In this document: positions 3,189-14,085 of the stretch, piece by piece
How positions within the stretch are numbered: the first letter of the stretch is position 1
Layout: every line of letters begins with the position of its first letter
Origin: Candidatus Multivoradales bacterium
GTDB lineage: Bacteria > Acidobacteriota > Thermoanaerobaculia > Multivoradales > Multivoraceae
NCBI GenBank assembly: GCA_965223325.1
Contig: CBDCWI010000002.1
Span: forward strand, 4,160,001-4,224,000
DNA length: 64,000 nt
Direction of reading: 5' to 3'
Program-made: the position numbers and the translations under genes
The notes under the pieces: generated by a model
Told to the model about the DNA's origin: nothing
Seen by the model: only the letters and a program-made list of their open reading frames with translations
Databases searched by the model: none

Positions 3189-3273
3189 GTCCAACAACCA
3201 CGTGCACTGGACGCGTACCCCGCACTCGCTTCGCTCGCGCGGGCTCCGCGCCAGTGACGTTCGTCCGTTGGAC
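3189..3273 (+). repeat. attC site 5
   Basis: gtccaac...gttggac. Confidence 0.9.
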
Positions 3274-4267: not shown

Positions 4268-4541
4268 ACTTACACGCCGCGCCCGCCTCGACATCGACGC
4301 CGGGTTCGAGTGGTACCTCGAGCGAAGCCCCAACGCTGCCGAGTCGTTCCTGCGCGAAGTCGATCGCGGAGTCGCCCTGGTCGTCGAGGCACCCGGCGTG
4401 TGGCCCACATTCGAGGGCGCCCAACGCTACGTACTCAACCGTTTTCCCTATTCGCTCATCTACACCGTCGAGGGTCATGTCGTGGTCGTACACGCCGTCG
4501 CGCATCAGAGCCGGCGCCCCGGGTACTGGAAGGACACGTGA
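4251..4541 (+). CDS. RelE/ParE family toxin
   Basis: GTG start at 4251; RYVLNRFPYSLIY...AVAHQSRRPGYW is a classic ParE C-terminus. Confidence 0.9.
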   Translation: MPLEVELTRRARLDIDAGFEWYLERSPNAAESFLREVDRGVALVVEAPGVWPTFEGAQRYVLNRFPYSLIYTVEGHVVVVHAVAHQSRRPGYWKDT

Positions 4542-4549
4542 GCGGCGCC

Positions 4550-4632
4550 GCCGAACACACAGGTCGAGCTGACGTGAACCCGCGCTCGCTTCGCTCGCTC
4601 GGGCCCACGCAGCTCACCTTCGTCCGTTGGGC
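4550..4632 (+). repeat. attC site 7
   Basis: gccgaac...gttgggc. Confidence 0.9.
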
Positions 4633-4673
4633 TGCTCGGGAACCGCATGCGGTGAGCGCAGGTCGAACGATTC

Positions 4674-5204
4674 ATGGCTTCGAGGCGAATCCTCCGCACC
4701 CGGCCGGCCCTGCTGCTGTTGTTGCTGGTCGCCGCCTCCGCTCCACTCGGGTGCGTCGGCCGGCATCATCGCGAACTTCCTCCGCTCGTCAGCACGGAAC
4801 TCACACTCACTGGCGCGTCTTCGGCCCTTCTCGAGGGCCGTTGGCGGGATGTCGATTGGGTCGTGCTCGCAGAAGTCCAGCCGCGTCGACTCTCCGTTCG
4901 GGTACCAGACGGATTCTGGATCAGTGATGCGCGCGTGGTCGACCGCGAGGTTCGCTTCTTGCTTCACGGAGGCGGCGGAGAAGGCGAGATGGCGCTTCGT
5001 TTGCTGGATGCGGAGACAGTCGTGCTTCTTCCCGCCGGAAGCGAGCCGTCCTTCTGCGGAACCTGTACCCCCTACATGTCTCGTCTATCGACGCTCATCC
5101 GTCACCGTGCGCCGCGAGCTGTTCCTGACGGTCTCGCGTGGTTCTCAGACAGGGTCGAGGAACGGTACGAGGCCGGGATGGACTGGCTCGCATCCGTTCT
5201 TTGA
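4674..5204 (+). CDS. Putative lipoprotein (cassette)
   Basis: Basic N-terminus, hydrophobic stretch, PLGC lipobox-like motif; CGTC motif. Confidence 0.7.
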   Translation: MASRRILRTRPALLLLLLVAASAPLGCVGRHHRELPPLVSTELTLTGASSALLEGRWRDVDWVVLAEVQPRRLSVRVPDGFWISDARVVDREVRFLLHGGGGEGEMALRLLDAETVVLLPAGSEPSFCGTCTPYMSRLSTLIRHRAPRAVPDGLAWFSDRVEERYEAGMDWLASVL

Positions 5205-7194: not shown

Positions 7195-7661
7195 GGCCTA
7201 AACTCGAGATTGCTGGCGCGCTGCTAGCCGGCGCGTTTCTCATAGCCTCGCCTCTCTCGGCGGGCGTAGGTCTGTGTGCGACCGTGGACGACGTTCAGGT
7301 TCTTGAGGAAGCGAACGGCTCGGCCACGGCAGTGAGAGTCTCCGGAGTGCATGACATCGGCGGACCTATCGACGTCATCGTGGTGTCGCTCGAAGTGCCC
7401 GGTCGGATTGCTGCCGAAGTGCACGTCTGCGGCGGCCCCAACATCCCGACCTCGTTCGACGAGACGCTTCCTCTGCCTGTTCTGCCGAAGGGCAGCTACC
7501 AACTGGAGACCATAGTCGTAGCTTGCAACTCGGAAGACAACCGCGAGTTGTGTAGCGTTACGCCCTTCGAGATCACCGTGAGTCCTATCCCGACCATGGG
7601 TAGGGCCGGGCTTGCGGCCTTGGCGATCCTCCTTCTCTGGTCAGCCAGGAGACGGCTGTGA
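7191..7661 (+). CDS. Secreted protein with IPTL-CTERM sorting tail (cassette)
   Basis: Signal peptide; C-terminal SPIPTMGRAGLAALAILLLWSARRRL (IPT-motif, TM helix, basic cluster). Confidence 0.8.
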   Translation: MRPKLEIAGALLAGAFLIASPLSAGVGLCATVDDVQVLEEANGSATAVRVSGVHDIGGPIDVIVVSLEVPGRIAAEVHVCGGPNIPTSFDETLPLPVLPKGSYQLETIVVACNSEDNRELCSVTPFEITVSPIPTMGRAGLAALAILLLWSARRRL

Positions 7662-7706
7662 CGGTCAGGGCAGGCACGAGAGAACACGCCAAGCGGCCGC
7701 CCAACA

Positions 7707-8181
7707 CCTATGAGGTCCCCTGACGTCAAGCGGCAAACGTCTCCTAGCGGACGCGGTCCGTAACGGTTTTCGGTCAGGTTTCGAATTCTGACTTTGGTTT
7801 CAGAGTGGGTGCGAGGCGAAGCCTCTGCACCAAACACCTATTGGGCCTCTGCCCTCGCCGAAGCGACGACTGCTGGCAGAGCCAGCGGACCAGAAACACA
7901 TCGGTGCCCTCGTACCGTCCGATTCAAACCGTGCTGGTCACGCCGGTGGCGTGCCGGAGTTGGTTGCCTGGTTCGGGTGAGGGGCAGAGGTCGAGATCGA
8001 CCGAATGCTGGCAGGTGAGTGGGAAGCCTCGTCCATTCAACCGGTCTGGCTGCCGGCTCTTGTGTCTCAGGCGCGTTGGGTGTCGATGCACCTGGAGCGG
8101 GTACTCCAATGAAGCGCCAAGGATGAGATCGGGCCGTGTGGCTCCAGTTAGGCGGAGGGCTCGAGGCTTCCAACTCGGAGA
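7707..8181 (-). ncRNA. Putative bridge RNA / seekRNA region of the IS1111-type element (copy 1)
   Basis: ~475-nt hairpin-rich non-coding end downstream of tnp, where IS1111-family guide RNAs are encoded; conserved in copy 2. Confidence 0.7.
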
Positions 8182-9225
8182 TCAAGCGTTCATGAAGGTC
8201 GGGGGGTGGAAGGCTTCGTTGTTCTTGAGCATGAAGTAGACGGCGCGGCCCAGCTTGTGGCGGAGCACGGCGTAGGCCTTGGTCTTGCCGTGCTTGCGCT
8301 TGAGGCGCTCGAGCATCTTCTTGCCGTGAGCCTGGCGCTGAGCGAAGAGCACGGCGGCCTCAGAGAAAGCCCACTTGAGGTGGTGGTTGCCGATCTTGTG
8401 GCGACCGCTGCCGGTTCGCTTGCCTGCAGACTCATGCTGCGGTCGGATCAGCCTGGCGTAGGAGGCAAACTGCTGCACGGTGGGAAACCTCGAGATGTCT
8501 TCGATCTCGTAGAGCATCGTCATGCCGAGGATAGGACCGACGCCGGGAATCGAAGTGAGGCGCGACAGTACGCTTGGATCGTGATCCTTGGCCAGAGCGA
8601 AGAGATGCCTCTCGACATCGGAGATCACCTCGTCGAAGGCCGCGATGAGTCGCTAGTTGGCGTCGATACTTTTCTTCGCTGACGGATCATCGAAGTGATG
8701 GAGGAGATCCGTGCGGTCCGACGGCCTGGCGATCCTGCCGAGCGACGTGTCGCAGTTGTACTGAGTGTTCGAGGTGCGGATGTGGACGAAGAGCTCGGCG
8801 CGCTTGCGTGTGAAGTACTGGCGCCTGCGCAGGAGATCTCTCGCGGCTCTCATCTTCTTGGGATAGGTGTAGGCCATTGGAAAGGTCCCGCCTCGTAGGA
8901 GGGCGGCGAGCTTGTAGGAATCGACCTTGTCGTTCTTGGCCTTGGCGCCGTGGATCGCGCTCATATAGAGGGCGTGGCCAAGCACGAATTCGATTCCCTC
9001 CTCGGCGCAGAGGTCGGCGAGCCAGTACCAGGAGAACATGCACTCGACACCCACGACCAGATCGTCTCGGAAGGGTTCGATGGCCTCGAGGAAGGCATCA
9101 GGCCGAGCGGGGATGTTTCGGTGGTAGATCTTCTCGCCGTCCTCGTCGAGGACGCAGAGGTACATCTTGCGAGCATGCAGATCGACACCGCAGGTGTGGC
9201 GATGACGGCGGTTGTAGAATCGCAT
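8182..9225 (-). pseudogene. IS110-family DEDD recombinase/transposase with one in-frame stop (TAG at 8653-8655)
   Basis: GVDLH / VEC / KNDKVDS RuvC-like DEDD motifs and C-terminal SIPGVG...HESAGK; the two ORFs are in the same frame (347 codons if read through). Confidence 0.92.
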
Positions 9226-9378
9226 CGAGGTCTCCTTGAAAAGAGTTTCTGTTTTACCGCTCGCAAGCTACCGCGTGGGTAGCTCGCCAGGGGACCTCAA
9301 TGATCTTCAATCGGATGGAGCCGACGAGAACCTGCGCTCGCTTCGCTCGCGGCAGTTCCCGCGGCTCTTCCTCGTTCC

Positions 9379-9767
9379 GTTGTACTGCGCAGGCACCGCC
9401 TGGGTAGCGGGCAGGGCGTCGCGAGCTCAGAACGTCGCGAGATCGTGGCGGCCGGTTCTGCCGGGCCGTTCGCTTGTGCCGGTCGCGACGTTCCCGCGGG
9501 AACGTCGCAGCGTCGCCCACCGCCCTGCGGTGCAGCTCGGCCGCTTCGGTGTGCTCGTCGGTCAGGGCCAGGCGGGCGCCGTGTTCTTCTCGCAGTCGCT
9601 CGGCGGTGCAAGAATGGGCCGGTACCTGCGCCGTGCAGCTCTCGTCTCTCACCCGGTCGGCGCTACGAAGGCCGGGTCGTTTCGTGGCTCGAGCTTTCTC
9701 GTTGAAGAACGCCGCGAGGATCGGAAGCGAACGTCAGCCAGGGCATCCGAAGAGAGCGCAGTACAAC
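9379..9767. other. ORF-less cassette C (homolog of B), fused to the downstream ORF
   Basis: Roughly 80% identical to 6096-6484 by eye; 24-bp perfect palindrome at 9485-9508. Confidence 0.7.
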
Positions 9768-10277: not shown

Positions 10278-10360
10278 GGACAACCACCCGGTCAACTCGA
10301 CATGAACCCGCGTCCGCTTCGCTCCCGCGTGTCCATGCGAGTTACAATTGCCCGTTAGCC
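10278..10360 (+). repeat. attC site 13 (near-identical to attC10)
   Basis: ggacaac-cacccggtcaactcgacatgaac...gttagcc. Confidence 0.85.
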
Positions 10361-10378: not shown

Positions 10379-10443
10379 CAGCCACGAACCCCGGCTCGCT
10401 GCGCTCGCTCGGGCTTCGTGCTGCTGAGCCTTGTCCGCTGGGC
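10379..10443 (+). repeat. Degenerate attC remnant (no AAC box; core GCT)
   Basis: Central arms resemble attC6 and attC11; ends ttgtcc-gctgggc. Confidence 0.7.
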
Positions 10444-10453
10444 CGCACCTGGT

Positions 10454-10478
10454 GGTAGCATGGTATCCGTGCTATCAT
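10454..10478 (+). promoter_or_regulatory. higBA operator inverted repeat overlapping an extended -10 (TGcTATCAT)
   Basis: tagcatgg-tat-ccgtgcta; TATCAT 6 nt before GTG 10485. Confidence 0.6.
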
Positions 10479-10484
10479 GTTTGC

Positions 10485-10781
10485 GTGATTCGGTCGTTCG
10501 CAGACGCCGGTACTGAGGACATCTTCAACGGTCGGAACACTCGGGCCGCAAGGAAGTCGTGCCCGCGCAACCTTTGGAACGTGGCCGCGCGCAAGCTGGA
10601 ACAGATCGACGCCGCTGAGGAGTTCGACGATCTGCGAGTCCCACCGGGAAACAGGCTAGAGGCGCTGTCAAGAGACCGAAAGGGACAGTTCAGTATCCGA
10701 GTCAACTCTCAGTACCGCATCTGTTTCGTCTGGACTCCGTCCGGCCCGGACGAAGTGGAGATCGTCGACTACCACCGCTAG
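10485..10781 (+). CDS. higB: HigB (RelE-like) toxin
   Basis: IRSFAD...DLRVPPGNRLEALSRDRKGQFSIRVNSQYRICFVW...EVEIVDYH. Confidence 0.95.
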   Translation: MIRSFADAGTEDIFNGRNTRAARKSCPRNLWNVAARKLEQIDAAEEFDDLRVPPGNRLEALSRDRKGQFSIRVNSQYRICFVWTPSGPDEVEIVDYHR

Positions 10782-10789
10782 AGGTCGCC

Positions 10790-11104
10790 ATGGTTCGCAT
10801 TCCCACTCACCGCACCCCAACTCATCCCGGCGTTATGCTGCTCGAGGACTTCCTCGAACCGATGGGCATCTCGCAGCGCGAACTGGCCGATGGGATTCGC
10901 GTTCCGTACCAGCGGGTCAACGAGCTGGTGAACGGGAAGCGTGGCGTCACGCCTGCCACCGCCCTGCGCCTGGGGAAGTTCTTCGGCATGAGTGCGGGGT
11001 TCTGGATGAACCTTCAACTTCGGTGGGACCTCTTTCACGCCCAGCGATCCGAGGGTGAGGCTCTCAGGAAGATCCGCCAGGTAAAGGTAACCGTGGAGGC
11101 CTGA
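10790..11104 (+). CDS. higA: HigA HTH antitoxin
   Basis: PTHPGVMLLEDFL...KRGVTPATALRLGKFFG..AGFWMNLQ. Confidence 0.95.
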   Translation: MVRIPTHRTPTHPGVMLLEDFLEPMGISQRELADGIRVPYQRVNELVNGKRGVTPATALRLGKFFGMSAGFWMNLQLRWDLFHAQRSEGEALRKIRQVKVTVEA

Positions 11105-11122
11105 GGTGGGCACGGCCCAACA

Positions 11123-11598
11123 CCGATGAGGTCCCCTGACGTCAAGCGGCAAACGTTTCCTAGCGGACGAGGTCCGTAACGGTTTTCGATCAGATTTCGA
11201 TATCTGGCTTTGGTTTCAGAGCGGGTGCGAGGCGAAGCCTCTGCACCAAACACCTATTGGGCCTCTGCCCTCGCTTTCGCGACGACTGCTGGCCTGGGCC
11301 AGCGGACCAGAAACACATCGGTGCCCTCGTACCGTCCGATTCAAACCGTGCTGGTCACGCCGGTGGCGTGCCGGAGTTGGTTGCCTGGTTCGGGTGAGGG
11401 GCAGATGTCGAGATCGACCGAATGCTGGCAGGTGAGTGGGAAGCCTCGTCCATTCAACCGGTCTGGCTGCCGGCTCAGATGTCTCAGGGCGCGTTGGGTG
11501 TCGATGCACCAGGAGCGGGTACTCCGATGAAGCGCGATGGATGAGGTCGGGCCGTGTGGCTCCAATTAGGCGGAGGGCTCGAGGCTTCCGACTCGGAG
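11123..11598 (-). ncRNA. Orphan copy of the IS1111 right end plus putative bridge RNA (no recombinase)
   Basis: Follows gcccaaCA (11115-11122) exactly as copy 1 does; IR at 11127-11138; >90% identical by eye to 7707-8180; homology ends at the position of the tnp stop codon. Confidence 0.75.
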
Positions 11599-11692
11599 TT
11601 CCACCCATCGCGGTGCTTGCTACGATGAAATCCGTGCGCTTCACGGCTTCTGACAAGACGCTTCACACGACCCGGCCGAGGCGTTAGGCCCC

Positions 11693-12124
11693 GTGCAGGA
11701 CCATGGCATCCGGCTGGCCGTTAAGAAGGACCTGGCGGCGCTAGTCGATGTCGACCCCATGGCTCGCGACGATGGTGGCCGAGGAGAGCTGGTCCGTGGC
11801 GCGATCGAAGCGCAACGGGCCTGGATTCTCGAGGTCTCGCTCTGCCCCGTTGGGTACGGAATCATCTCCCACGACTTCTTTGGCCGATCGTTCCTGGACC
11901 TGATCTTGATTGCGGAATCTCAACGCTCAAAGGGATACGGGCCGCGCTTGATTGCTTTCCTCGAAGGCCTCTCCCGATCCAACGACCTGTTCACCTCGAC
12001 CAACCAGTCCAATTCACACATGCGGCACGTTCTCGAGAAACTCGGCTACGAGCGATCGGGGATCATTCACAATCTTGACCCTGACGACCCGGAGATCGTG
12101 TACGTCAAACGTGTTGAGTGTTGA
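11693..12124 (+). CDS. GNAT family N-acetyltransferase (terminal cassette, attC lost)
   Basis: QRSKGYG motif A, FTSTNQSN..M; preceded by a GTTAGGC core at 11683-11689. Confidence 0.85.
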   Translation: MQDHGIRLAVKKDLAALVDVDPMARDDGGRGELVRGAIEAQRAWILEVSLCPVGYGIISHDFFGRSFLDLILIAESQRSKGYGPRLIAFLEGLSRSNDLFTSTNQSNSHMRHVLEKLGYERSGIIHNLDPDDPEIVYVKRVEC

Positions 12125-12279
12125 GCATGCCCGGTAAGGCGGCCCGCGTGCGCCCTGTGACGCCGTAGGGCCCCGGACGTCTGTGTGACCTCCGGTGCCG
12201 CGGCGCCCTCCTGCTACGCGGAGTAGCATGACGAACACGGCGTGACTCGTTCGACCACGCCCAAACGAAGGACCTCGAG

Positions 12280-14085
12280 ATGAACCGACGATGCTGCGTT
12301 GTAGCGGCGGCGCTCTGCACCGCGGTCGCCATGGCGGCCTCCGGCCAGGAGGCGAGTGAGCGACAGGCGTTCTTTGGCGACCTGCACATCCACACCAACT
12401 ACTCGTTCGACGCCTTCACCGGCAATGTGCGTACGACCCCGGACGATGCCTACCTGTACGCCAAGGGGCAGCCCATTGCACACCCTTCGGGCGACGCGAT
12501 TCGCATCACCGGCCGACCGCTCGACTTCTTGATGGTTGCTGACCACGCGGAGTACCTTGGCATTCACGCCGCCCTGCTTGACCCGACCAGCCCGACCTAC
12601 GGTCATCCGGAGACCGACTCGGTGCTTCCCAGGCCGGGAACGACATTCATGGCAACTGCTCGCCGGCTGAACGAACTGATCACCTCCGGTCACGAGATCG
12701 TCAGAGATGAGGTGATCGCTGACGCCTGGACCAAGACCATCGAAGCCGCTGAGCGGCACAACGACCCCGGAACGTTCACCACCTTTGTCGGCTTCGAGTA
12801 CACGCCAACCCCCGACGCGCGTCATTTGCACCGCAATGTCGTCTTTCGCAGCTCGGATGTGCCTGAGATGCCGTTCTCGGCGCGCGACTCAGGCAATCCA
12901 GAAGATCTTTGGACGTGGCTCGACGCGCGCCGCGCCGAAGGTATCGAAGCCTTGGCCATTCCGCACAATATGAACCAGAGCGACGGGCTCGCTTTCCAGC
13001 AACAGACCTTCGGCGGCAAGCCGATCGATCGCGACTGGGCGGAGAAGCGGATGCGCAATGAGCCCGTCGCCGAGATCAGTCAGCAGAAGGGCACTTCGGA
13101 AACGCACCCGTCGCTATCGCCGAACGACGAGTGGGCTGACTTCCAGATCGTCCAGTACTATCGGAATCGCGCCGAGAACAAGGATCCGATCTCGGTCTTC
13201 AAGGGTGGCTACTACCGCGACGCGCTCCGTGTGGGTCTCGAGTTCGAGGAGAAGCTCGGTGCCAACCCGTACCAACTCGGCGTCGTTGCCGCCAGCGACA
13301 GCCACACGTCGGCTGCCGCCTACGAGGAAGACAACTACTTCAGCAATCCCAACTCGCCCGCGGCGCGCGGTTCCTCCTACCGGGGAGAGGACGGAAGCTG
13401 GGACGGCTTCTTCACGCCTCGCCAGGCGACGCATGGCACAGGCGGTCTCACTGGGGTCTGGGCCGAAGAGAACAGCCGCGCCGCGATTTACGACGCCATG
13501 CGCCGGAAGGAGTCCTTCGGCACTTCGGGGCCGCGTATCCGCGTGCGGATGTTCGGCGGCTTCGGTCTGGACCGGGCGCTCCGCGGCTCAGCCGATCCGG
13601 TCGCCGAGGCCTACCAGGGCGGTGTTCCCATGGGCGGCGTGCTGCCGGCGAATGGGTCTGGCGCGCCGAGCTTCCTAGTCTGGGCCATGCGCGATCCCGA
13701 GACCGGCTGGTTACAGCGCGCGCAAGTGATCAAGGGGTGGGTGGACGAGGGCGAATCGCACGAGCGGGTCTATGACGTCGCGTGCAGCGACGGCCTCGAG
13801 CCGGACCCCAGGACGCACCGCTGCCCTGACAATGGCGCCCGCGTGAATCTGGCGGACTGCTCGGTGAGCCGTGACAAGGGCGCCGTGGAGTTGCGGACGG
13901 TGTGGACCGACCCCGACTTCGATGCTTCGGAGCGCGCCTTCTATTACGTTCGTGTGCTCGAGAACCCGAGTTGCCGCTGGTCGATGTGGGACGCTCTGCG
14001 CTCCGGCATCGAGCCCAACCCCGATCTCCCCACCACGCATCAGGAACGTGCCTGGAGCTCGCCGATCTGGTACCAGCCCGAGTAG
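12280..14085 (+). CDS. DUF3604 domain protein (PHP-like metallohydrolase), secreted
   Basis: FFGDLHIHTNYSFDA, DHAE, HLHRNVVFR, AIPHN, QERAWSSPIWY. Confidence 0.92.
   Translation: MNRRCCVVAAALCTAVAMAASGQEASERQAFFGDLHIHTNYSFDAFTGNVRTTPDDAYLYAKGQPIAHPSGDAIRITGRPLDFLMVADHAEYLGIHAALLDPTSPTYGHPETDSVLPRPGTTFMATARRLNELITSGHEIVRDEVIADAWTKTIEAAERHNDPGTFTTFVGFEYTPTPDARHLHRNVVFRSSDVPEMPFSARDSGNPEDLWTWLDARRAEGIEALAIPHNMNQSDGLAFQQQTFGGKPIDRDWAEKRMRNEPVAEISQQKGTSETHPSLSPNDEWADFQIVQYYRNRAENKDPISVFKGGYYRDALRVGLEFEEKLGANPYQLGVVAASDSHTSAAAYEEDNYFSNPNSPAARGSSYRGEDGSWDGFFTPRQATHGTGGLTGVWAEENSRAAIYDAMRRKESFGTSGPRIRVRMFGGFGLDRALRGSADPVAEAYQGGVPMGGVLPANGSGAPSFLVWAMRDPETGWLQRAQVIKGWVDEGESHERVYDVACSDGLEPDPRTHRCPDNGARVNLADCSVSRDKGAVELRTVWTDPDFDASERAFYYVRVLENPSCRWSMWDALRSGIEPNPDLPTTHQERAWSSPIWYQPE

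Follow-up and report, generated by a model that had tools for sequence, protein, structure and literature searches.

We analysed a 64,000-nucleotide stretch of DNA (hereafter the window) from Candidatus Multivoradales bacterium (Acidobacteriota), namely positions 4,160,001 to 4,224,000 of contig CBDCWI010000002.1 in assembly GCA_965223325.1 (C2:4160001-4224000), where an integron cassette array carries a recombinase-less partial copy of an IS1111-type insertion sequence (IS). This partial copy, termed copy 2, lies on the minus strand at 11122-11598 and comprises the right end and the complete non-coding region (NCR) of the element, with 94% identity to positions 7706-8180 of the full-length copy 1. 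It is preceded by a higB-higA cassette, which begins after the GTTAGCC of the preceding attC (10354-10360) and contains two plus-strand genes at 10431-10781 and 10790-11104 (Pfam HigB-like_toxin, E = 2e-17, and HTH_3, E = 5.8e-9, respectively). The inverse core (R'') of the attC of this cassette, GCCCAAC, was located at 11115-11121 on the plus strand and constitutes the target DNA abutting the right end of copy 2; a word of this kind was seen at all seven genomic copies of the right end. On its other side, copy 2 is followed by an 88-nt plus-strand tail (11602-11689) that ends in GTTAGGC (11683-11689) and has no second copy in the genome or in the loci fetched for comparison. The tail and the inverse core together yielded no attC stem and only three small hairpins, whereas the corresponding flanks of copies 1, A and C do fold. 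The tail is thus not a canonical attC body, and two origins may account for it, namely decay of a terminal attC or acquisition of unrelated DNA through the deletion. An earlier reading of the sequence alone (the first-pass annotation) had described the interval 11115-11689 as a right end with the full NCR, seated in the attC of the higBA cassette. The right end and the full NCR are present, the first 7 nt (GCCCAAC) belong to the attC target and not to the element, and the attC is recognisable on the inverse-core side, the other side having no attC arm.

The array closes shortly after copy 2. A GNAT acetyltransferase open reading frame (ORF) occupies 11693-12124 on the plus strand (Pfam Acetyltransf_1, E = 7.3e-7); downstream of it no attC was found, and the following gene encodes a 601-aa DUF3604 protein (E = 1.6e-215). 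The lack of an attC past the acetyltransferase ORF, together with this gene, indicates that the cassette array ends there. Copy 2 thus appears to sit in the last recognisable attC of the array.

The duplicated stretch was delimited by a whole-genome search, in which 11115-11601 matched 7699-8183 with 94% identity across 485 nt; the claim of the first-pass annotation that a second copy, more than 90% identical, of the right end and the NCR is present was therefore borne out. The repeat finder returned the same stretch as three collinear blocks, 7699-7877/11115-11293 (93%), 7881-8071/11298-11488 (98%) and 8070-8183/11488-11601 (93%). In the MAFFT alignment, homology between copies 1 and 2 was unbroken from GCCCAAC to CTCGGAG, and the flanks on either side were unrelated. 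The two copies differ at 28 positions, comprising 26 substitutions and 2 one-base indels, and the three hairpin comparisons listed earlier (gctggc-aga-gccagc and its counterparts) were all present in the sequence. The last base of CTCGGAG is 8180 in copy 1 and 11598 in copy 2, and the stop codon (TGA, minus strand) of the copy 1 recombinase lies at 8182-8184, in agreement with the earlier statement that homology stops within 1 nt of the stop codon. Past CTCGGAG two of the three bases still match, so that the breakpoint of copy 2 is ambiguous by approximately 3 nt (11598-11601). Searches beyond this junction detected neither recombinase homology nor a left inverted repeat, as the first-pass annotation had also reported. 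Copy 2 retains the right subterminal inverted repeat (GAGGTCCCCTG, 11128-11138), read from the sequence, but not its left partner. Short-read contigs of run X1, which is possibly the assembly's own sample, span both junctions of this copy without mismatch.

The parent element of copy 2 is best described through copy 1, a full-length element of approximately 1605 bp on the minus strand (7706-9310); BLAST of 7600-9500 against the whole genome placed the element limits at approximately 7696-9310. Copy 1 consists of the right end and NCR (7706-8181), the recombinase gene (9225-8185, stop codon 8184-8182) and the left end (9226-9310). Its 347-aa recombinase matches DEDD_Tnp_IS110 (PF01548, E = 1.1e-14) and Transposase_20 (PF02371, E = 7.8e-21), and 11-bp subterminal inverted repeats (GAGGTCCCCTG at 7712-7722 and its complement at 9288-9298) lie 6 and 12 nt inside the ends. 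The NCR extends for 475 nt from the stop codon (8182-8184) to the right end (7706). Features described for IS1111 elements are a 330-350-aa transposase, inverted repeats in subterminal position and, downstream of the gene, a long NCR that yields a seekRNA (PMC11187229). Because the recombinase domains and length, the subterminal repeats and the downstream NCR match these features, the parent element is assigned to the IS1111 type on sequence grounds. Likewise, it is taken to target attC, because a RYYYAAC-like word adjoins the right end and an attC hairpin can be rebuilt from the flanks. At 7/7 genome copies the adjoining word varies (GCCCAAC, GCCGAAC, ACACAAC, GCCTAAC or GCACAAC) and the element end is constant; in copies 1, A and C the inverse core joined to the flank beyond the left end gave one long attC-like hairpin (-29.6 to -42.5 kcal/mol). 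The flanks fit insertion at a shared AA core as well as a break after AAC, and the ends are uncertain by approximately 2 nt. In a plasmid search the best relatives had less than 60% protein identity and appeared only as 'IS110 family transposase'.

Seven right-end copies were found in the 6.7-Mb genome, four with a recombinase gene and three without, and all four genes are broken. The recombinase of copy 1 is interrupted at residue 191 by an in-frame TAG, that of copy A carries a 4-nt deletion and a 1-nt insertion, and that of copy C a 1-nt insertion; in copy B (C2:3825905-3827375) a 162-bp deletion removes the left repeat and the first ~28 codons but leaves the final 10 nt of the left end in place. 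These four broken genes are the only PF01548 matches in the genome. The earlier observation that no intact recombinase is present in the array therefore extends to the whole genome, and the search for an intact cognate recombinase gene that had been proposed there ended, in this genome, without one. The TAG of copy 1 (8653-8655, minus strand) sits between its two Pfam domains, and a GTG-started ORF (8628-8185) covers the C-terminal domain. The three recombinase-less pieces, namely copy 2 (485 nt), C1:2124988-2125287 (295 nt) and C2:3829790-3829986 (190 nt), are each anchored at the right end, with inner limits that differ from piece to piece; scraps of the left end and the recombinase were also found at C2:980961-981240 and C2:3824959-3825018. 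Copy 2 is the longest of this series of truncated copies.

The wider setting is an array remote from an integrase. The only integron integrase of the genome lies at C2:3807261-3808190 (422.7 bits against a cut-off of 265) and is intact. The array is located approximately 350 kb away from it, so the first ~12 kb of the window represent an attC cluster without its own integrase. Uninterrupted attCs of the same array were found at 3189-3273 and 10283-10360. A strict attC pattern scan retrieved one attC only in the window, as the core sites of this region deviate from GTTRRRY, and a looser attC-tail motif clustered at C2:3.80-3.84 Mb and 4.16-4.18 Mb. Further direct repeats in the window, 2394-2693/5223-5522 (93%) and 6234-6487/9517-9770 (84%), are apparently paralogous cassette segments. 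A contig of run X6, which derives from another organism and another study, is identical over 291 nt to 11071-11361, covering the end of higA, the attC core and the right end, and diverges from the window upstream of 11071.

The NCR was compared by a profile search of 80 loci, consisting of 78 recombinase-seeded foreign loci (L019-L098) and fetches of a same-genus locus. A homologous NCR was found in 54 of the 80, comprising 52 of the 78 foreign loci as well as L017 and L019, which are two fetches of one same-genus locus; the match starts directly after the recombinase gene in most of the 54. Relatives of the recombinase in the fetched loci have 46-74% identity and come from many phyla. RNAalifold applied to 21 sequences predicted 13 helices in three domains on the minus strand. 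Compensatory substitutions, for which the first-pass annotation had suggested looking, were seen in all 13 helices, with 1-9 pairs per helix changed on both sides. In domain 1 (11438-11589), a large internal loop is enclosed by a closing helix of 12 bp (11589-11576/11450-11438), 9 of whose 12 pairs were changed on both sides among the 21 sequences. In domain 2 (11322-11403), nested helices surround a conserved YAACU...UUUGAAU internal loop (73-94% paired; 1-6 double-sided pairs per helix). Domain 3 (11213-11314) is closed by the helix 11314-11310/11217-11213 and holds an internal copy of the terminus of the element (84-98% paired; 1-5 double-sided pairs per helix). The NCR minus strand may be regarded as encoding a putative seekRNA or bridge RNA. 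Rfam 15 gave no match at the gathering threshold for the whole window, and a permissive search of both loci returned a chance hit (E = 0.29). A small protein was considered and found unlikely, since the minus-strand ORFs 7838-8185 (115 aa) and 11216-11656 (146 aa) hold two 1-nt indels between the copies. Insertions of 1.3-1.65 kb interrupt the NCR in L035 (1318-2970, profile ~321-352) and L091 (2596-3940, profile 163-202).

Two short words within the putative RNA are in keeping with a guide. The first, at 11246-11258 on the minus strand (AAUAGGUGUUUGG in RNA orientation), repeats the right-end terminus internally and covaries with the real terminus among the foreign loci. In those that yielded both words, the internal one (AUAGGUGUU) and the right terminus fell into 5 shared variant classes, being identical in 6 foreign loci and one base apart in the rest; the internal word is a candidate donor-end guide. 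The second, GCCUAAC, matches the consensus of the attC inverse core exactly and hardly varies among 25 aligned NCR sequences; in copy 2 it reads GCCUAAU (11565-11571, minus strand), at a position that is invariant in the other 24. The large internal loop of domain 1 is a candidate target-binding loop in the structural model, and the allocation of target and donor loops within the NCR is one that we infer. Tandem duplications of the last 140-165 nt of the element, with 1-2 extra units, were observed at L020:2024-2354 and 4399-4721, L046:2264-2418 and L057:4477-4749, and each begins exactly at the internal terminus copy, between ...ATAAGTGTT and TGG.... This pattern suggests that DNA encoding a terminus-matching guide can itself be a recombination site.

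The distribution of substitutions was examined with two reference structures, one from RNAalifold on the 21 sequences and the other from 16 foreign sequences only. With the former, in which 32% of columns are paired, 0 of the 26 substitutions between copies 1 and 2 fell in paired columns; with the latter, 2 of 26 differences did so, where 27.6% were expected (P = 0.013). The earlier remark that the differences fall in loops is thus statistically real. It is not specific to the orphan copy, because recombinase-linked pairs gave similar values in the structure from foreign sequences (copy 1-A, 2/22; copy 1-C, 5/40; A-C, 3/28). Differences in the recombinase genes are mostly synonymous as well (copy 1-A, 36 synonymous against 8 non-synonymous single-change codons). 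Since these dead recombinase-linked pairs show equal depletion and synonymous gene changes, helix avoidance is attributed to inheritance from active ancestors. The 5-9% divergence between copies would therefore have arisen while the lineages were active and selected to transpose, with the inactivating lesions coming later. The first-pass annotation had expected a neutral remnant to carry substitutions that are random with respect to structure; those of copy 2 are not random, since the avoidance was inherited. Copies 1 and 2 each form 52 of 66 conserved pairs, and the genome's own copies form 50-53 of 65-66 in the structure built without them, so the intact fold of copy 2 appears to be what a copy stranded not long ago would have inherited. 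The private changes of copy 2, which include bases at 11536-11538 and 11275-11278, gave no sign of constraint, at low power. One of them, at 11565, turns GCCUAAC into GCCUAAU, and another, at 11125 (minus strand) in the right-end terminus, means by sequence comparison that the terminus no longer equals the internal copy at 11246-11258.

Candidate promoters were also sought. A crude consensus scan detected no sigma-70-like site on either strand of 10900-12300. For ISEc11, the circle-junction promoter was the only one revealed by inspection of the IS sequence (PMC11187229). A conserved TTGAC near the right end of the present element fits the -35 box of such a promoter, and reading by hand gave no convincing -10 box at the predicted circle junction. 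Copy 2 cannot form a circle or a junction promoter because its left end is missing, and it is presumably without expression.

The architecture of copy 2 did not recur. Its breakpoint was found nowhere else in its own genome, in 60 relatives, in 400 genomes of the phylum, in the 78 recombinase-seeded loci or in 120 metagenome loci, and a search for RNA-only copies with the same breakpoint, as had been proposed, was negative in the genome, the relatives, the phylum sample and these 198 foreign loci. The first-pass annotation had named a breakpoint unique to this genome as a mark of a neutral remnant, and the uniqueness observed counts against a function. The sole same-genus genome among the 60 relatives has a single recombinase-linked copy with 73% identity and an intact gene, and the 400 sampled phylum genomes gave one weak partial match. 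In one of the 78 recombinase-seeded loci (L020:1609-2337), an additional NCR with its right end occurs without a recombinase gene, at 98% identity to a full copy 2.4 kb away; the break falls inside the gene, of which the terminal 46 nt are retained. The DNA just upstream of this NCR shares a 9-nt word with the left end of the element.

A metagenome scan seeded by the conserved NCR motif gave 121 motif hits at 120 loci. A complete or nearly complete gene was present in 62 hits, and 16 had too little upstream DNA; in 26 the gene ran to the contig end, a loose class since L100 and L122 have 660-720 nt upstream without recombinase homology. The rest comprised three hits with a 5'-truncated gene, one without a profile hit, one complete NCR without a gene, and 12 shorter NCR fragments without a gene, of which 5 (L167, L168, L188, L197 and L208) have no near-identical full copy and may reflect alignment limits instead of real breaks. 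Among the 12 fragments, 5 distinct loci were confirmed against full copies of 88.6-100% identity, with breakpoints at profile positions 181, 234, 240, 277 and 277. Right-end-anchored fragments thus appear to be common in the clade, with scattered breakpoints, and among the sequences compared the break at the stop codon appears in copy 2 only. Two further loci had looked like orphans. L124, in which homology to L148 starts 8 nt past the stop codon, was rejected because its longer homologue L217 has a gene, an insert and then the NCR. The insert (L217 101-795, homologous to L124:1-115) is a ~690-nt ORF-less group II intron located 8 nt past the recombinase stop and before the NCR; its first bases are GTGCG, and Rfam Intron_gpII was matched at the 3' end with 56.7 bits against a gathering score of 40. 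In L131, the 154 nt upstream encode a recombinase-like C-terminus.

We consider copy 2 to be a neutral deletion remnant of an attC-targeting IS1111-family element, with a probability of roughly 0.8. An element would have inserted beside the inverse core (R'') of the attC of the higBA cassette, and a later deletion would have taken out the entire recombinase gene together with the left end and, as a minimum, the neighbouring attC arm, joining the first base or so past the recombinase stop to unrelated DNA. The deletion as an event, and its order relative to the others, are what we infer; the tail that is not an attC and the end of the array just beyond fit a deletion running out of the element. 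In active relatives the NCR would be the 3' part of the recombinase transcript, processed into a seekRNA or bridge RNA. The good preservation of the NCR of copy 2 would reflect its youth, measured against the divergence within the element family, and not maintenance by selection. With no partner recombinase, no left end and a mutated terminus, copy 2 should be able neither to move nor to guide in this cell. Its lasting effect would be structural, as it splits the attC of the higBA cassette, which would consequently be fixed in place.

Several points weigh against this reading. The break lies 1-4 nt from the stop codon, for which chance gives ~0.5% over ~1600 nt, or ~1.5% when three fragments are allowed for; this nearness is the one feature that chance explains poorly, and the breakpoint could mark a preferred site. 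Copy 2 makes as many conserved pairs as copy 1, and none of the 26 substitutions falls in helices, so conservation is possible. Only 9 changes are private to copy 2, of which 2 are in columns at least 80% conserved where 28% was expected, a comparison of low power. The promoter scan was crude, and host promoters may differ from the consensus. The genome is 98.2% complete in 2 contigs, and a recombinase on an unassembled replicon is conceivable.

The position of the break is the chief argument for a recombinase-made module, in which the NCR and right end form a separable unit whose left junction was joined to a pseudo-site beside the stop codon, either by excision of the left end and gene as a circle or by insertion of an NCR-only circle into the attC, the boundary being a recombination site. 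The stop codon of copy 1 lies within TTGA, the first four bases of the left end (TTGAAG...), several relatives' genes also end in TTGA, TTGAA or TTGAAG, and the junction of copy 2 can be read as a diverged left tip (TTCCA against TTCAA, 4/5). The retention of the last 10 nt of the left end in the internal deletion of copy B is in line with such a process, as are the tandem duplications in L020, L046 and L057, where the terminus copy marks the start and internal sites seem to recombine. A precedent is offered by ISPpu9, which forms circles with the recombinase gene, the small-RNA gene or both, and has stand-alone ssr9 copies (PMC12288879). However, at the stop codon copies A, B and C and the same-genus L019 carry CTGA instead of TTGA, which leaves most of the lineage without the TT core, and agreement over 4-5 nt can be expected by chance. 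The DNA past the junction has no attC arm, which argues against a circle having inserted into an attC, and no sequence resembling the left subterminal repeat flanks the NCR. A second case is also lacking, L020 being broken inside the gene and L124/L217 being explained by the intron. We therefore regard such a module as unlikely.

The first-pass annotation had considered function, proposing that a stand-alone RNA may act as a trans guide, as a decoy or immunity RNA, or as a domesticated regulator of attC recombination. A functional RNA of this kind would guide or titrate an incoming recombinase, or would pair with attC and modulate integron recombination. It would be compatible with the complete NCR and its pairing, with the avoidance of helices by the substitutions and with the word equal to the attC inverse-core consensus, and an intact integron integrase is encoded in the genome. 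A close match between guide and protein may be unneeded, as transposases with 46% identity have seekRNAs that share target matches and fold (PMC11187229). Against it, the genome holds no usable recombinase, the locus is absent from the single same-genus genome searched and from all other genomes searched, private changes strike the attC-matching word and the terminus, and the left end is gone. No promoter-like site was found, and the promoter described for the family (PMC11187229) cannot form. Dead recombinase-linked copies avoid helices alike, and the array is ~350 kb from the only integrase gene. These points leave the functional proposals of the first-pass annotation very unlikely. A broader version, in which recombinase-less NCR copies form a stock of attC-directed guides for an incoming IS1111-type recombinase, or a protective sink, with the boundary of copy 2 as a recombinase-made module, is highly improbable in our judgement. 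An assembly artefact, that is, a repeat-induced misjoin skipping the recombinase gene, has a negligible chance of being correct: the repeat is multi-copy and short-read contigs break inside it (summed depth 34-107, compared with ~8-11 beside it), but a 788-nt X1 contig covers 11487-12124 with no mismatch and more than 100 nt on each side of the junction, a second X1 contig covers 10431-11155, and the substitutions private to copy 2 rule out a collapsed copy 1.

As a deletion remnant, copy 2 would be an ordinary decayed copy of a known kind of IS in an integron array, from a phylum in which such elements have received little attention. Its value lies in being a useful negative example: with the guide-RNA region placed between recombinase gene and right end in IS1111-type elements, an apparent orphan guide results from any left-side deletion, and an intact fold with loop-confined changes, inherited from active ancestors, is no proof of present function. 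Two by-products of the analysis extend beyond this locus, namely an RNA region of ~475 nt with three covariation-supported domains that is conserved in attC-targeting IS1111-like elements of at least 5 phyla, and an internal terminus copy that covaries with the terminus of the element and at which tandem duplications begin exactly. If the reading as a guide stock or decoy were true, trans or decoy use of bridge-type RNAs in nature would become directly testable.

Among the closest known systems is the IS1111-attC group (ISPst6, ISKpn4, ISPa25 and relatives), whose members have the same DEDD recombinase of ~340 aa, subterminal repeats and a long downstream NCR, insert in a fixed orientation at one end of attC, as here, and yield from the downstream region a seekRNA with short target matches (PMC11187229, which cites Post and Hall 2009 and Tetu and Holmes 2008 on attC targeting by ISKpn4 and ISPst6). 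The likeness is set by the description of the named members; the host here is an acidobacterium, and plasmid relatives have less than 60% protein identity. Tetu and Holmes reportedly described in 2008 that Pseudomonas cassette arrays end in degenerate footprints of these elements, left by a cycle of infection, expansion and extinction, and the array studied here presents a like picture. The seekRNAs or bridge RNAs of IS1111/IS110 elements are encoded just downstream of the recombinase stop, as is the NCR here (PMC11187229), and the NCR resembles them in having covarying helices around large loops and words equal to the target and to the element's own end. The two differ in size, the conserved region here being ~475 nt, against 82-96 nt for peak seekRNAs and 154 nt for a long form (PMC11187229). 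Literature searches for orphan guide RNAs brought up ISPpu9 only. In MITEPpu9/ssr9 of ISPpu9, a small-RNA segment downstream of an IS110-family recombinase gene also occurs alone, like copy 2 (PMC12288879). However, ssr9 is flanked by both end boxes (A' and B'), forms its own circles, is not a guide RNA and is dispensable for transposition (PMC12288879). Copy 2, in contrast, has the right end only, lacks a left-end box, any likeness to the left tip being limited to 5 nt, and lies in a genome with no active recombinase. The more general likeness is to solo or truncated IS remnants, in which one end is kept, the transposase is lost and other truncated or inactivated copies are present in the genome; copy 2 differs from the usual remnants of this kind in keeping the whole guide-RNA region, which in IS1111-type elements happens to occupy the space separating the gene from the right end.

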